This document shows, piece after piece, positions 41,282 to 51,691 of a DNA stretch of 64,000 bases. Under the pieces are notes generated by a model. That model was given only the letters and a program-made list of their open reading frames with translations, ran no database searches and had not been told where the DNA came from. This DNA comes from an uncultured Bacteroidota bacterium (lineage in GTDB: Bacteria > Bacteroidota > Bacteroidia > AKYH767-A > JABDAW01). Position 1 is the stretch's first letter. The number at the start of each line of letters is the position of its first letter. The stretch covers positions 1,428 through 65,427 of the forward strand of contig CAIMUP010000013.1 in NCBI GenBank assembly GCA_903844645.1. Reading direction: 5' to 3'. The position numbers and the translations under genes are program-made.

Positions 41282-41444
41282 AAATACGACTACAATGATG
41301 CCGTCATCTCCTACAATGATAGCGTCATCTACTACAATTATGCCGTCATCTACTACAATTATGCCGTCATCTACTACAATGATGGCGTCATCTACTACAA
41401 TTATGCCGTCATCTACTACAATGATGGCAACTTCGACTACACAT
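41282..41444. repeat. 21-bp tandem repeat array F, about 7.5 copies, unit ATGCCGTCATCTACTACAATT
   Basis: Read directly. It lies between two co-directional operon genes, with 16 bp before the surA-like start. Confidence 0.95.
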
Positions 41445-41459
41445 TTATTACATTAATTC

Positions 41460-42830
41460 ATGAAAATAATCAAAAATATAACGGGAATTTTTTTCTGCAT
41501 CGCGCTGCTGAATTCCATTGATACCGTGGCGCAGGTGAAAATTCTGGATCAAGTAGCAGGGGTGGTCGGGGATAAGGTGATTCTGCAATCCGACATCGAA
41601 TCGCAATATCAGCAATATATGCTCCAAGGCGGGGTGGATAATCCAGCCATTCGCTGCGAAATTATGTATCAGATGTTGATTAATAAACTGCTCCTGAATC
41701 AAGCAATATTAGATAGCGTAGAAGTTTCGGGCACGGCTGTAGAGGAGGAATTGGATAAACGGATGCGGTATTATATCTCCCAAATCGGCTCGCAAAAGTT
41801 GCTGGAGGAACGTATGGGAAAATCGGTATTGGAGCTGAAAGCCGACTTCAGAACGCTGATTAAAGACCAGATGCTGACGCAACAAATGCAACAAAAAATT
41901 ACGAAAGATGTGAATGCCTCGCCATCGGATGTGAAAAGTTATTACGAACACATCCCGAAGGATAGTTTGCCGAGGGTAGAATCGGAATTTGAGATACAAC
42001 AAATCGTTCGGCATATAGAAGTTACCGATGAGCAAAAAAAGGAAGTGAAGGATAAATTGGAAGGTTATAAACAAGAGATTTTGAAGGGTACTCGGGACTT
42101 TGTCGCCACTGCCGTTTTATACTCTCAAGACCCCGGTACTACTAAAAAAGGCGGTGAATTAGGCTTCTTCGGGAGGGGCGATATGCAACCTGCTTTTGAG
42201 GCTGCCGCATTCCGCCTTCGTCCGGGTGAAATATCGGATATTATTGAAACGCCGTTCGGGTATCACATCCTGCAATTGATTGAAAGAAGGGGCGAACAGA
42301 TTAATGTCAGGCATATCTTATTACATCCAAAAGTAAGCGATGATAATATTGACAAAGCGAGTAAATTTTTGGATAGTTTGAAGACGGAAATTAATAATAA
42401 AACCATCACCTTTGCCGATGCGGCGATGAAATTCTCTGATGATGCAGATACCAAGAACAATGCCGGACTGATGCAAAATGTGCAGGATGGAACAACCAAA
42501 TTTGAGGCTACCACGATGGATAAAACCCTGTTCTTCCAGATAGATAAATTGAGCATCGGGGAGCTATCGAAGCCTGTATCTTATTCTGACAGAGAGGGCA
42601 AGGCTTCGTTGCGGGTATTGATGGTGAAATCGAAAACAGCTCCGCATACCGCGAACTTGAAAGACGATTATCAGAAGATTCGCGGGGCGGCTTTGCAGGA
42701 GAAACAGAACCTCGCCTTGCTGGATTGGGTGAAGAAGAAGCGTGCTAATACGTTTGTGAATATCACGAAAGATTATCGCAAGTGCGATGCCATAAAGGAC
42801 TGGTTGAAGAATACCGCAACAACGAATTAA
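41460..42830 (+). CDS. surA: chaperone SurA-like peptidyl-prolyl isomerase
   Basis: Signal peptide present. SurA N-terminal domain followed by a parvulin domain (FGYHILQLIERRGEQINVRHILL). Confidence 0.7.
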   Translation: MKIIKNITGIFFCIALLNSIDTVAQVKILDQVAGVVGDKVILQSDIESQYQQYMLQGGVDNPAIRCEIMYQMLINKLLLNQAILDSVEVSGTAVEEELDKRMRYYISQIGSQKLLEERMGKSVLELKADFRTLIKDQMLTQQMQQKITKDVNASPSDVKSYYEHIPKDSLPRVESEFEIQQIVRHIEVTDEQKKEVKDKLEGYKQEILKGTRDFVATAVLYSQDPGTTKKGGELGFFGRGDMQPAFEAAAFRLRPGEISDIIETPFGYHILQLIERRGEQINVRHILLHPKVSDDNIDKASKFLDSLKTEINNKTITFADAAMKFSDDADTKNNAGLMQNVQDGTTKFEATTMDKTLFFQIDKLSIGELSKPVSYSDREGKASLRVLMVKSKTAPHTANLKDDYQKIRGAALQEKQNLALLDWVKKKRANTFVNITKDYRKCDAIKDWLKNTATTN

Positions 42831-42848
42831 ATAAGAAAAATTAAGACT

Positions 42849-43817
42849 ATGGATATAAAATTTAACTCCGATGTAGAAGCAGTGGATTCCCTGGTGGGGA
42901 CTTACAAGGACCTTCGCAAAGAAATTGGGAAAGTGATTATCGGGCAAGACGATATTGTGAAGGATGTGCTGATCTCTATCTTCGGGCAGGGACATTGCTT
43001 GCTGGTGGGTGTGCCGGGCTTGGCGAAGACGCTGTTGGTGAATACGATTGCGCAGACGTTAGGCTTGACGTATAACCGGATTCAGTTTACGCCTGACTTG
43101 ATGCCGAGTGATATTATCGGGACGGAAATATTGGATGAAACTCGTAAGTTTCGGTTTATTAAAGGACCGTTGTTTGCGAATATTATCCTTGCCGATGAGA
43201 TTAACAGAACTCCACCAAAGACTCAGTCGGCGTTGTTGGAGGCGATGCAGGAACGGACTGTTACTGCTGCCGGAACGCGGTATGATTTGGGGAAGCCGTT
43301 CTTTGTGTTGGCGACGCAAAACCCGATTGAGCAGGAGGGGACTTACCCGTTGCCGGAGGCGCAATTGGATAGGTTTATGTTTAATGTGTGGTTGGATTAT
43401 CCAAAATTTGAGGAGGAGATACAGGTGGTGAAGAATACGACCTCGAATTATAAACCGGAGTTAAAAGTTATTATTCATGGGGAAGAGATTGTGTATTTTC
43501 AGGACTTGGTGAGGAGGATTCCTATTGCGGATAATGTGTTGAATTATGCGGTAACCTTGGCGCAGAAGAGCAGACCGAATACGGCATTGGCTACGGAGAT
43601 GGTGAATACTTATCTGTCGTGGGGTGCTGGTCCGAGGGCTTCGCAGTATTTGGTGATTGGGGCGAAGGTGAACGCGATATTCAATGGGAAATATTCTCCT
43701 GATATTGAGGATGTGCAGGCGGTGGCGGCGGGTATTCTGCGGCATCGTATTGTATTAAATTATAAGGCGGAAGCTGAACGGGTTTCGGTGGAGAGCATTG
43801 TTAAAAGCCTTATTTAA
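42849..43817 (+). CDS. MoxR-family AAA+ ATPase
   Basis: Walker A GVPGLAKT and Walker B ILADEINR. The size is about 320 aa. Confidence 0.9.
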   Translation: MDIKFNSDVEAVDSLVGTYKDLRKEIGKVIIGQDDIVKDVLISIFGQGHCLLVGVPGLAKTLLVNTIAQTLGLTYNRIQFTPDLMPSDIIGTEILDETRKFRFIKGPLFANIILADEINRTPPKTQSALLEAMQERTVTAAGTRYDLGKPFFVLATQNPIEQEGTYPLPEAQLDRFMFNVWLDYPKFEEEIQVVKNTTSNYKPELKVIIHGEEIVYFQDLVRRIPIADNVLNYAVTLAQKSRPNTALATEMVNTYLSWGAGPRASQYLVIGAKVNAIFNGKYSPDIEDVQAVAAGILRHRIVLNYKAEAERVSVESIVKSLI

Positions 43818-43869
43818 GAGAAGAATCCGGGGGATTCAAATCAGTTTTTGGTGTCTGGAGCAGTTTAAC

Positions 43870-49913: not shown

Positions 49914-49926
49914 AAAGGGAAAAAAG

Positions 49927-50167
49927 CCGACCGGATTTGGGAAAGATGCGGTCGGATATTTCCTTTCTCCGGTCGGATATTTCTTTTTTCCGGTCGGATA
50001 TTTCTTTTTTCCGGTCGGATATTTCTTTTTTCCGGTCGGATATTTCTTTTTTCCGGTCGGATATTTCCTTTTTCCGGTCGGAGATTTCTTTTTTCCGGTC
50101 GGAGATTTCCTGTTTCCGGTCGGAGATTTCCTTTTTCCGGTCGGATATTTCCCGTTACCGACCATTA
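49927..50167. repeat. 21-bp tandem repeat array H, about 11 copies, unit CCGGTCGGATATTTCTTTTTT
   Basis: Units at 49949, 49970 and onward through 50138. Variants are GGAGATTTCC. Confidence 0.95.
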
Positions 50168-50299
50168 ATTTTTGGCTGATTAACGGAAGAAAATATATCT
50201 TTGACCCCTTACCAAAAAAATGAAGCCGCAAAAAGCGATTCCGAAGGACATAAAATGAATGAAACAAAACATAATAGTAAACTTAAAACAGACAGATAA

Positions 50300-51544
50300 A
50301 TGAGAGCACTTGAGAAGAAAATGAAAGCCTATACCGCGCCGGAAGAAGTGAAGGCATTGGGGATTTATCCTTACTTCCGCGAGGTGGGTTCGGGGCAAGA
50401 TACCGAGGTGATGATCGAAGGAAAAAAAGTCCTTATGTTCGGCTCGAACAGCTACATGGGGCTGAATAATCATCCCGAAGTGAAGGCTGCCGCGAAGAAG
50501 GCGATTGATATGTACGGCACGGGATGTTCCGGCTCGCGTTTCTTGAATGGGACATCGGTTATTCACATCGAATTGGAGGAAAAACTGGCGAACTTTGTGG
50601 GCAAGGAAGCGTCCTTGGTTTTCAGTACCGGCTATCAAACAAACCTTGGCGTGGTGGGAACCTTGACGGGTCGGCATGATTATATTATTCTGGATGAATT
50701 GAATCATGCTTCGATTATTGAGGGCAGCAGATTATCGTTTTCGAAGGTCTTAAAATTCAGCCATAATAACATGAATGACTTGGAAGATTTGCTAAAGAAA
50801 TTACCTGCCGATAAGATTAAATTAATCGTTGTAGATGGTATCTTTAGTATGGAAGGCGACATCGCCAAACTCCCTCAAATTATGGCTCTTGCCGCGAAAT
50901 ATGATGCTGCCGTTATGGTGGATGATGCCCATTCATTAGGCGTTCTCGGGAAGACGGGTAAGGGCACGGCAGATCATTATGGTTTGACCGATCAGGTGGA
51001 TATGATTATGGGCACTTTCAGCAAGTCTTTGGCATCCCTCGGGGGCTTCGTGGCGGCGAATGCAGATATTATTAAATACCTTAAGCACCATGCCCGCGCT
51101 TTGATATTCAGTGCAAGCATTCCCCCTGCTTCTGCGGCTACCGCGATGGCGGCTTTGGATATTATTCAGCGTGAGCCGGAACGCATCGTGAACCTTTGGA
51201 AAAATACCCATTACATGATAGCGGAATTAAAGAAAGAAGGCTTCGATTTGGGCATTACCGAGACTCCGATTATCCCAATTTATATTCGCGATAACATGAA
51301 AACTTTTATGTTCACGAAGCGGCTGTTCGATGAGGGGATATTTGTGAATCCTGTGGTTAGCCCTGCCGTGAAAAGCGATTCTTCTTTGATACGAATTTCC
51401 CTCATGGCGACCCATACCAAGGAACAAATTGATAAGACGTTGGAGAAGATTTATATGATTGCAAAGGAACTGGAATTATTCGAATTTCAGGCGACAAATG
51501 CCGGCAATCATTCCAACCATGCTGGCGACGATGATAACTTATAA
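50300..51544 (+). CDS. alpha-oxoamine synthase family PLP enzyme (serine palmitoyltransferase / cysteate-acyltransferase / BioF/Kbl-like)
   Basis: Motifs [15 protein letters not shown] and PLP-lysine [13 protein letters not shown]. The C-terminal tail (...GDDDNL) is encoded by the first units of repeat array I. Confidence 0.8.
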
Positions 51545-51691
51545 GGCAATGATGACGCCATTGCTGGCAATGATGACGCCAACGCCGGCAAAGACGACAA
51601 CTACGCTGGCAAAGATGACGTCTACGCTAGCAAAGACGACAACTTTGCTGGCAAAGATGATAGCTTTGCTGGCAAAGATGACAGCTACGCC
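51503..51691. repeat. 21-bp tandem repeat array I, about 9 copies, unit GGCAAAGATGACNNCTACGCT. It begins inside the 3' end of the preceding CDS.
   Basis: Units at 51503, 51524, 51545 and onward through 51671. The CDS stop codon TAA at 51542 lies within unit 2. Confidence 0.9.

Follow-up and report, generated by a model that had tools for sequence, protein, structure and literature searches.

Open reading frames bridge 21-bp tandem repeat arrays at short operon junctions of an uncultured Bacteroidota bacterium

Introduction

How can an operon accommodate a tandem repeat array between two of its genes? This question is raised by a stretch of 64,000 nucleotides (hereafter, the window) of an uncultured Bacteroidota bacterium (contig CAIMUP010000013.1, GenBank assembly GCA_903844645.1), in which a preliminary description had located arrays A, F, and I between co-directional genes, with array I reaching into the upstream coding sequence. 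The arrays, their counterparts in related strains and species, and the reading frames that cross them were analyzed here.

Results and Discussion

Tandem Repeat Arrays of the Window

Using TRF, about 14 tandem arrays were identified in the window, with A, F, and I among them, the positions of the latter three being reproduced both by the program and by direct reading. The array periods were 21, 42, or 63 bp, plus one array with a period of 41, and a lag scan of the 64-kb window revealed self-similarity at lags 21, 42, and 63, and at none of the other lags between 5 and 69. The window arrays are far from chance and recur in metagenome assemblies made independently; differences between assemblies for arrays H, J, and A were multiples of 21, short-read collapse being possible in the case of H. 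The period of 21 bp is strictly kept irrespective of context, be it a convergent gap, a divergent gap, or an array without an open frame (B and L1/L2), and was also found, with other units, in sister-species contigs (L006, L086, L092, L094, L096, and L098), but 21-bp arrays were nearly missing at 79 more distant SPT loci. A few 7-mer arrays (TGTTCAC, TCATTAT, and CAATTGA) were observed in the sister species as well. Likeness between units of different arrays, determined as the best rotation/strand identity for about 20 units, was at the level of shuffled 21-mers. Since the units are arranged head-to-tail and have no spacers, a CRISPR array was rejected, and the search of the whole window with Rfam covariance models returned no match at the gathering threshold.

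The window arrays are members of the class of constant-size/variable-sequence bacterial tandem repeats (20–21 nt or 52 nt) described by Subirana and Messeguer (J Bacteriol 2020; Int J Mol Sci 2021, PMC8161180). They share with this class one fixed, dominant repeat length per genome (21 nt here), many arrays of differing sequence with unrelated units, mostly 4–13 units per array, a non-coding, intergenic, and species-specific occurrence, and partial conservation between strains with varying lengths. For this class, 21 nt was remarked to correspond to two helical turns (PMC8161180). The class was described mainly for Bacillus, Paenibacillus, cyanobacteria, and actinobacteria, whereas the window belongs to Bacteroidota, an example of which was not confirmed in the literature on this class. 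Moreover, Subirana and Messeguer report a short motif common to the arrays of a species, but no excess between-unit similarity that would signify such a motif was found among about 20 units of the window. Their work gives no account of operon-junction arrays, bridging open reading frames (ORFs), or overlap with the end of a coding sequence, all of which are present here. Other short tandem repeats, namely the heptanucleotide STRR of cyanobacteria and the intergenic TAACTGA repeats of Beggiatoaceae (PMC4679880), are likewise abundant, intergenic, lineage-specific direct repeats; however, they have a 7-nt period and a common sequence, whereas the window arrays have a 21-nt period, the three heptamers of a unit being unrelated and no common sequence having been found among the arrays.

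Arrays F and I in Compact Operons

Array F (positions 41289–41442, about seven units of ACTACAATGATGCCGTCATCT) comprises 6.6 units over 41289–41426 and is prolonged to about 41442 by a degenerate unit. It follows the second gene of a PPIase operon (40406–41251, forward strand), which has no Pfam match and encodes a lipoprotein-like product with the N-terminus LFRIIFCCLIISLMTSC, featuring a signal and an LMTSC lipobox-like motif. The array ends 17 nt before the start codon at 41460 of a SurA-like PPIase gene (41460–42830, forward strand; Pfam Rotamase and SurA_N), the N-terminus of which is conserved in contig L086. The last gene of the operon (42849–43817, forward strand; Pfam AAA_3 and AAA_lid_2) encodes a MoxR-type AAA ATPase; downstream of it, the hairpin GAATCCGGGGGATTC precedes a T-rich tail (43823–43850), so that array G (43869–44152; 13.5 units of the two subfamilies CGGCTGTTGATTGGGGAAAGT and TGGACGTAGATTGGGGAAACA) lies beyond the operon terminator. 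Array F is identical in the strain contig L003. The gene order PPIase, lipoprotein-like gene, SurA-like gene, and MoxR gene is retained in L086, where the junction orthologous to F measures 12 nt and contains no array.

Array I (51500–51709) consists of ten units in register with the consensus GCTGGCAAAGATGACAACTAC, and overlaps the end of a gene for an SPT/AONS-like, PLP-dependent acyltransferase (50300–51544, forward strand; Pfam Aminotran_1_2). As previously described, the array supplies the last codons of this gene: units 0 and 1 constitute its last 14 codons, and unit 2 opens with the TAA stop codon (51542–51544). Upstream of the gene, array H (49949–50152, about ten units of CGGTCGGATATTTCTTTTTTC) lies directly 5' of a conserved promoter-like box (TATCTTTG at 50196, obtained by promoter motif scan); its copy number varies among assemblies, and a different 21-bp array occupies the same place in L006. 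Downstream of array I, a GNAT-like gene (51722–52849, forward strand; Pfam Acetyltransf_1) overlaps an epimerase/reductase gene (52846–53853) by 4 nt. The order of these three genes was also found in L006 and L092, but array I is missing in L006 and L092/L093, where the distance between the SPT stop codon and the next ATG is 3 nt. The SPT-like protein shares 92% identity with its L006 orthologue over residues 1–407; the tails differ, and the orthologues, which end before the array, show no tail conservation. Array I has probably grown from the junction sequence itself, overwriting a non-conserved tail of the SPT-like protein, although an ungapped test for local origin was not significant.

With gaps of 12 nt at F and 3 nt at I, the sister-species junctions are too short to hold a promoter or terminator, and in the F and I gaps of the window neither a terminator-like site nor a properly spaced Bacteroidetes promoter motif was found, which supports the proposed location of the arrays within transcription units. 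The expectation of arrays at the same positions in close relatives held for junction A, which carries one in at least six lineages, but not for F and I. The latter are thus not conserved operon elements, and they are recent.

Junction A between a TonB-Type Receptor Gene and a DUF4249 Lipoprotein Gene

Array A (1859–2047, nine units of TATTAGAGGAGCTCAAATAGG) separates the 3' part of a TonB-type outer-membrane receptor gene (4–1791, forward strand; Pfam OMP_b-brl_4) from a DUF4249 lipoprotein gene (2078–2974, forward strand; Pfam DUF4249), the product of which carries the lipoprotein signal MKKLLFLLALIPFIFIGC (...FIGC). Full-length orthologues of the receptor possess CarboxypepD_reg and Plug domains, and the receptor gene ends with ...FKF TAA in all relatives alike. 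Arrays of 21 bp with other units, which drift between lineages, occupy the same junction in L096/97, L098, L099/100, L101/102, and L103–105.

Bridging Open Reading Frames

The new observation of this study is that all arrays at short junctions between co-directional genes (A in six lineages, F, and I) are each located within an ATG-initiated ORF on the sense strand, referred to here as the relay ORF. In all eight cases, the relay ORF starts with an ATG 0–5 nt past the upstream stop codon, remains open across every unit of the array, and terminates at a stop codon that overlaps the downstream ATG or is no more than 8 nt away from it. The relay ORF of array A (1791–2081, forward strand, 96 aa; simulated chance P = 0.004) overlaps the upstream stop codon (TAATG) and the downstream start codon (ATGA). 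Across array F (41256–41456, forward strand, 66 aa; P = 0.014), the ATG lies 4 nt past the upstream TAA, and 3 nt separate the terminal TAA from the SurA-like ATG. Similarly, the relay ORF of array I (51549–51719, forward strand, 56 aa; P = 0.013) starts 4 nt past the SPT TAA, with 2 nt between its terminal TAA and the next ATG. When five junctions were analyzed frame by frame, the relay ORF and the downstream gene were in different frames in at least four.

In simulations, chance probabilities ranged between 0.004 and 0.014 per junction for A, F, I, L096, and L098, with a product of 2e-11, to be read with the limitation that six of the eight cases represent one orthologous junction (A), where the ORF start region looks orthologous, and thus are not fully independent. 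The thresholds defining a bridge were set after the first cases were known, and the later loci fitted them: out-of-sample lineages followed the pattern with P = 0.01 (L099/100) and P = 0.001 (L101/102), and with an ATGA overlap in L103–105, resulting in chance probabilities of 0.1–1.4% for each junction tested. No equivalent bridging ORF was detected on the antisense strand of the A, F, I, L096, and L098 arrays, or in the long-gap arrays behind terminators (C, E2, G, K, and L). Since 21 equals 3 × 7, the relay frame survives any change in unit number. Accordingly, relay ORFs persist despite copy-number variation, with lengths of 96, 117, and 124 aa in the window species (the latter two predicted by gene callers in two other strains, with the same overlaps), 102 and 88 aa in L096 and L097, and 58 and 51 aa in L099 and L100.

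Proposed Mechanism and Comparison with Known Systems

From the sequence, we infer that transcripts span the arrays and that the relay ORFs are translated, and consider it fairly probable that ribosomes are carried across the intercistronic 21-bp arrays, translational coupling thereby being preserved. Ribosomes finishing the upstream gene would re-initiate at the ATG of the relay ORF, translate through the array, and terminate at the start codon of the next gene, which would restore termination–reinitiation coupling between the two genes. The ribosome cover on the inserted RNA could also shield it against Rho and RNases, and the sequence of the relay peptide itself would be immaterial. Translation coupling was among the roles listed in the preliminary description; it gains support, and a sharper form, from the stop-to-start ORF enclosing each short-junction array. 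It is more likely that the operons tolerate the arrays as inserts than that the arrays serve as coupling devices.

Termination–reinitiation coupling depends on genes that overlap or are separated by very few nucleotides (PMC10666635; Huber et al. 2019, PMC6728339), and the geometries of coupled gene pairs are found at both ends of the relay ORFs (TAATG, stop codon plus 3–4 nt plus ATG, ATGA, and a stop codon 0–7 nt before the ATG). However, coupled pairs feature this geometry once and directly, whereas it occurs here twice in series, via a non-conserved, repetitive spacer ORF. A further precedent is the mycobacterial interspersed repetitive unit (MIRU; Supply et al. 1997, summarized in PMC12548453), the ORF of which is coupled with the gene that follows. 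According to this summary, MIRUs, like the window arrays, are gene-oriented tandem repeats within operons that show VNTR behavior and contain a small ORF overlapping or abutting the flanking stop and start codons, the ORF being thought to keep translational coupling and thus to make the insertion nearly harmless. This arrangement was found for eight out of eight junction arrays, on the sense strand only. However, MIRUs are one dispersed, apparently mobile family with longer units, whereas each window array has its own 21-bp unit, unrelated to those of the others, with no sign of mobility, and array I seems to have grown locally.

Alternative Explanations

The arrays could instead be neutral, selfish satellite DNA, the bridging ORFs being an unselected by-product of birth by in-frame duplication, an explanation that we regard as rather unlikely. 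The duplicated 21-bp segment would have comprised the downstream start and first codons, the first copy keeping the ancestral ATG beside the upstream stop codon. Unit 2 of array I (TAAGGCAATGATGACGCCATT) indeed aligns with the ancestral junction of L006 (TAAGCC-ATGATAAC--AATT), unit 1 holds the exact ancestral start 8-mer ATGATAAC, in-frame ATG codons are present in units of F, I (most units), and L096, and F and I are young. As such a birth would create an open frame without selection, part of the relay pattern may be a birth mark instead of an adaptation. However, besides the non-significant ungapped test, why the ORF should stop right at the next start codon (ATGA overlap or 0–7 nt in front of it) is left unexplained in all eight cases, and the differing relay and downstream frames show that simple in-frame extension was not the source. 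Furthermore, the ORF of junction A outlasts the replacement of its units across lineages with 59–81% protein identity, a sign of purifying selection for openness. Functional small heptad-repeat proteins, e.g., accessory peptides of the TonB receptor/DUF4249 pair, appear very improbable as products of the bridging ORFs. The junction-A ORF was annotated by gene callers, it occurs in at least six lineages, and its N-termini are weakly similar (MMEREIL, MKREIR, METMIL, and MEMMIS), but no relationship exists between the repeat peptides of different lineages (GIRGAQI, FMAPIFP, ECAIRPT, VMTGTIE...), ORF lengths differ among strains, unit differences show no synonymous-site bias, the gap of this junction is only 66 nt in one lineage, and the ORFs of F and I have no sister-species counterpart.

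A role of the DNA itself, with the arrays as phased binding platforms or curved DNA read over two helical turns by a nucleoid-associated or regulatory protein and their operon position incidental, would agree with the strict 21-bp period in all contexts, with the function proposed for the repeat class in PMC8161180, and with the proximity of array H and its L006 counterpart to a conserved promoter. We consider it improbable: no motif common to the arrays was found among the units compared, which makes a sequence-specific binder unlikely, sister species do without arrays F and I, and the relay ORFs are left unaccounted for. It is nevertheless compatible with the ribosome relay and answers a separate question, namely why the period is 21 bp; the exact period of arrays outside operons is not accounted for by the relay. 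Finally, array I was proposed to be a contingency locus for the length of the SPT-like C-terminus, with an RNA-structural role of the arrays (e.g., RNase protection), for which we see hardly any likelihood. Translation confirmed that the SPT frame continues past its stop codon as GNDDAIA/GNDDANA/GKDDNYA... heptads, with no more stops and in frame into the ATG at 51722, and the intergenic RNAs fold better than shuffled sequences (z = −4.5, −5.4, and −3.0). However, array I is the same in five assemblies, all strains encode an identical 414-aa protein, and the best 120 homologues (393–431 aa) include no read-through or fusion forms. Copy-number changes 3' of the SPT stop codon cannot alter the protein. 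As only units 0–1 precede this stop codon, orthologue tails are unconserved, and unit differences by codon position (4/6/7) show no third-position bias and thus no protein-level selection on the GKDDxYA reading, array I was rejected as a protein-coding heptad repeat. Low folding energy is to be expected whenever the unit of a repeat is partly palindromic, and the arrays have no Rfam match and are conserved between species neither in sequence nor in structure.

Conclusions

This Bacteroidota clade quickly gains, expands, shrinks, and loses 21-bp arrays in intergenic DNA. Such arrays can arise in operon junctions of 3–12 nt and overwrite the 3' end of a coding sequence, and at least one of them (junction A) outlasts deep divergence, its sequence turning over while the 21-bp period stays. 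In practice, they break short-read assemblies and yield spurious hypothetical-protein calls. An array within a relay ORF might additionally act as a heritable, reversible length dial, its copy number setting the distance and efficiency of the ribosome relay to the next cistron and thereby tuning operon stoichiometry (e.g., receptor vs. lipoprotein). This idea is doubtful; if true, it would provide the constant-size/variable-sequence repeats with a first concrete function and account for the retention of the junction-A array in six lineages despite sequence replacement.

Bacteroidota make little use of Shine–Dalgarno-led initiation. The operon-splitting arrays studied here are always wrapped in an ORF that reconnects both cistrons. 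If the relay is true, it shows how operons of Bacteroidota tolerate large intercistronic inserts, and would carry the principle known from MIRUs over to a phylum and a type of repeat unrelated to theirs.

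Repeat Class of the 21-bp Arrays

Approximately 14 tandem arrays, each with a different unit, were detected by TRF in the 64-kb window (41% G+C), and a lag scan over periods 5–69 revealed self-similarity at lags 21, 42, and 63 only. According to the ORF-based gene map, of the 19 intergenic gaps exceeding 100 nt, approximately 14 contained arrays, with co-directional, convergent, and divergent gaps all being represented; in total, arrays made up about 4% of the window. Units were compared by their best identity over all rotations and both strands, relative to shuffled 21-mers. 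The between-array identities were distributed as in the shuffled 21-mers, similarity was restricted to subfamilies of one array, and neither a shared motif nor a common origin was found among the roughly 20 units compared. Inspection also ruled out a 7-nt sub-period inside the units, since the three heptamers making up each unit bear no relation to one another. Heptamer arrays (TGTTCAC, TCATTAT, and CAATTGA) were present in L006 and L086, contigs of sister species, and the clade therefore makes 7-nt repeats too.

A strict 21-bp period with other units was also found in the related-lineage contigs L006 (92% SPT identity), L086 (82% SurA-like identity), L092 and L094 (86% SPT identity), L096, and L098. 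Essentially no 21-bp arrays were present at the other 79 SPT loci, originating from more distant Bacteroidota (≤68% identity). A repeat class with sizes of 20–21 nt or 52 nt has been described as non-coding and species-specific, with partial conservation and variable length between strains; its authors speculated about nucleoid proteins or small RNAs, 21 nt corresponding to two helical turns (PMC8161180). The arrays of the window match this described, unexplained class, and the general phenomenon is therefore already known; they are a new instance of this enigmatic class in an uncultured Bacteroidota clade.

Relay ORFs at Operon Junctions

The preliminary description had placed arrays A, F, and I inside operons and array I in fusion with an SPT-like gene. 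Printing of the sequence in a 21-nt register and reading of the junctions confirmed these positions and the overlap, so that the observation stands, and the interpretation was supported in part. Array A (1859–2047) is located between a TonB-type barrel gene (end 1791) and a DUF4249 lipoprotein gene (start 2078). Array F (41289–41442) lies within a co-directional cluster of PPIase, lipoprotein-like, SurA-like, and MoxR genes, between the lipoprotein-like gene (stop 41251) and the SurA-like PPIase gene (ATG 41460). Array I begins within the SPT/AONS-like gene, at 51500; units 0–1 encode 14 residues, and unit 2 opens with the TAA of this gene (51542–51544). Past the TAA, the SPT frame reads GNDDAIA, GNDDANA, GKDDNYA, etc., and is stop-free into the next ATG at 51722.

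In a first set of five arrays in co-directional gaps of 177–309 nt (A, F, I, and those of L096 and L098), a sense-strand ATG ORF was open through all units at five out of five junctions. These relay ORFs (1791–2081 for A, 41256–41456 for F, and 51549–51719 for I) begin 0–5 nt past the upstream stop codon, with the form TAATG in window A and TAA-nnnn-ATG at the other four junctions (F, I, L096, and L098). They end in an ATGA overlap with the downstream start (window A and L096) or 3 nt (F), 2 nt (I), and 7 nt (L098) before the downstream start codon. Under a null model permuting the 21 unit columns identically in every unit and shuffling both flanks, the probability of a chance bridge was 0.004–0.014 per junction (product 2e-11 for the first set), and no bridging ORF occurred when the same gaps were reverse-complemented. 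Further lineages, fetched later as an out-of-sample test, all fit: L099/100 with TAA-GCC-ATG ... TAG|ATG (P = 0.01), L101/102 with TAA-GCTT-ATG ... TAA-TGCA-ATG (P = 0.001), and L103–105 with a frame open up to the ATGA overlap.

Besides their geometry and statistical excess, the relay ORFs show persistence through copy-number change and unit turnover. In the window species, the junction A relay ORF is 96 aa long in the window, compared with 117 and 124 aa in two further strains, where gene callers annotated it as running from the final base of the receptor stop codon into DUF4249, which it overlaps by 4 nt. Likewise, it measures 102 aa in L096 vs. 88 aa in L097, and 58 aa in L099 vs. 51 aa in L100. 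Copy-number variants preserve the relay because one unit equals seven codons. The relay peptides are unrelated from lineage to lineage, and unit differences showed no third-position excess (4/6/7 by codon position in array I); the conserved feature is the open frame with its start and stop positions, not the peptide. Frame openness alone was discarded as a signal, frames open across the junction arrays differing little in number between sense (7/15) and antisense (4/15) strands; the relay signal resides in the ORF start and stop positions.

Relay ORFs are missing from arrays outside operons, and arrays C, E2, G, K, and L in long gaps (424–844 nt) featured no bridging ORF. Array G sits behind a hairpin and T-tract 3' of MoxR. 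Array E lies within a 161-aa ORF (28713–29198) encoding (K/N)KIPFSN repeats, which ends 8 nt before the next ATG and starts 67 nt past the upstream stop, representing a half-bridge. This ORF might serve as a relay that initiates at a site of its own.

Conservation of Arrays at Orthologous Junctions

Arrays at the positions noted in the preliminary description proved to be shared with relatives for A only, being absent at F and I in close relatives. In L086, the PPIase, lipoprotein-like, SurA-like, and MoxR gene order is intact with 12 nt between the stop and the SurA ATG, and the distance from the SPT stop to the next ATG is 3 nt in L006 and, independently, in L092/L093. Since the junctions of these relatives measure 12 nt and 3 nt, F and I are recent insertions into tight junctions, which in their ancestral state were presumably translationally coupled.

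At least six lineages carry a 21-bp array at the A position, the receptor/DUF4249 junction. Their DUF4249 proteins share 59–81% identity, and their units all differ: TATTAGAGGAGCTCAAATAGG in the window, CATGGCACCAATTTTTCCGTT in L096/97, ..TAGCCGNAAGTT.. in L098, GAATGTGCCATCCGTCCCACG in L099/100, GACTGGAACCATAGAAGTCAT in L101/102, and GACTGAAAGGTTGAAAGTCAT in L103–105. The units of L101 and L103, the closest pair, are recognisably related. These results are consistent with long-term persistence of one array, its unit drifting through concerted evolution and its period being retained. One lineage at 76% identity has a receptor/DUF4249 gap of just 66 nt. The 762-nt gap past DUF4249 in L096 (6891–7654) was rejected as an array, as it holds inserted genes and no repeats; this insertion, extending to the Pyr_redox gene, contains two small ORFs (115 and 55 aa), and the corresponding gap in the window measures 9 nt.

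The proposal that array I could make the SPT C-terminus variable was not borne out: no longer, shorter, or fused forms were found in five strain contigs, in seven cluster members, or among the best 120 homologues (393–431 aa), and the sequence of array I does not vary between the five assemblies. The SPT tail past ...ELELFEFQ differs among relatives and is not conserved, and its rewriting is therefore probably harmless. The SPT/AONS-like gene forms a cluster with GNAT-like and NAD-dependent epimerase/reductase-like genes (50300–53853); L006 and L092 retain this gene order, with junctions of 3 nt and -4 nt. This cluster looks like an operon for sphingolipid or sulfonolipid-type lipid biosynthesis. 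The SPT homologue of L094 (86% identical) has another gene context, adjoining a Mur ligase gene.

Between assemblies, arrays H, J, and A vary in length by multiples of 21, and for H, these differences may reflect short-read collapse of identical units. The strain contig L002 carries a scaffold N-gap in array H, and several contigs (L001–L005 and L103–L105) start or end within 21-bp arrays. Short-read copy numbers are unreliable, because arrays break or collapse assemblies.

RNA Structure, Promoters, and Other Repeats

Folding z-scores were dismissed as evidence for an RNA role, since any repeat whose unit is partly palindromic outperforms its shuffled versions, and Rfam yielded no match at the gathering threshold over the whole window. 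A sigma-70 promoter scan remained at chance level and is uninformative for Bacteroidota. Scanning for TAnnTTTG also gave chance level, and the lone match inside array I (51661) was rejected for its wrong spacing to the -33 TTTG.

Array H ends just upstream of an interspecies-conserved promoter-like box, ctgattaacggaaNaaaatatatctttg, containing TATCTTTG (array and box within 49949–50203); the array H unit combines the hairpin arm CGGTCGG with a T-tract, the inverse arm CCGACCG lying 15 nt upstream. At the same position, L006 (9824–9900) has a short but different 21-bp array, which seems to have arisen from the 3' arm of the adjacent terminator hairpin. Array B (4111–4341), in a convergent gap, has a 42-bp unit composed of two distinct 21-mers, each forming a hairpin (CACATT-accc-AATGTG and GGCA-aaaaaccta-TGCC), and no open frame. 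Arrays J0 and J are located in a 1.1-kb convergent gap past the epimerase gene, where the inverted repeat CCGTCATCATATATGAAAACGG / CGTTTTCATATATGATGACGG (54369–54389 and 54538–54560) brackets J0 and precedes J.

Arrays L1 (TGAAAGACTA...) and L2 (TAGTCTTTCA...) at 61985–62200 are mutually inverted copies with likewise inverted flanks (CCATTAACCACTTAATTGAAG / CTTCAATTAAGTGGTTAATGG), forming a palindrome of approximately 250 bp with its centre near 62105. Similarly, in L086, the array at 19105–19264 has degenerate, inverted copies of itself on either side, and L096 harbours a 7/8-mer array (415–519, GGTATAG/GGTATAAG) followed by its reverse complement (544–659, ACCCTAT/ACCCTTAT). Furthermore, a 205-aa ORF (15441–16058) with an (AC)14 run (15547–15574) and a short 21-bp array (15888–15940) is probably a repeat-filled divergent intergenic region, not a gene.

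Origin and Proposed Role of the Relay ORFs

The relay pattern may partly be a birth mark. Unit 2 of array I (TAAGGCAATGATGACGCCATT) aligns with the ancestral TAAGCC-ATGATAAC--AATT, and the exact ancestral start 8-mer ATGATAAC is present in unit 1, for which reasons the relay ATG of array I may be the old start codon, and the array may have expanded out of the local junction sequence. When matched without gaps to the L006 junction, array I gave no significant result for such a local origin, the best match being unit 1 vs. the ancestral tail (13/21, p ~0.05); the support being a gapped alignment by eye and the 8-mer, we keep local origin as a hypothesis.

The exact 21-bp period, present even where arrays are untranslated, is left without explanation by the relay reading. 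The relay-ORF architecture at operon junctions resembles that of MIRUs; to our knowledge, it has not been described for the constant-size repeat class. Since termination-reinitiation coupling requires overlaps or very short distances (PMC10666635, PMC6728339), and MIRUs contain an ORF that is coupled to the next gene (Supply et al. 1997, summarised in PMC12548453), we infer from the junction geometry that ribosomes finishing the upstream gene would resume initiation at the relay ORF, continue translating across the array, and terminate at the following start codon. Such translation would keep the coupling between cistrons and would probably also shield the insert against decay and Rho-dependent polarity. 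As sister species do without F and I, we regard the arrays as tolerated inserts rather than devices evolved for coupling.
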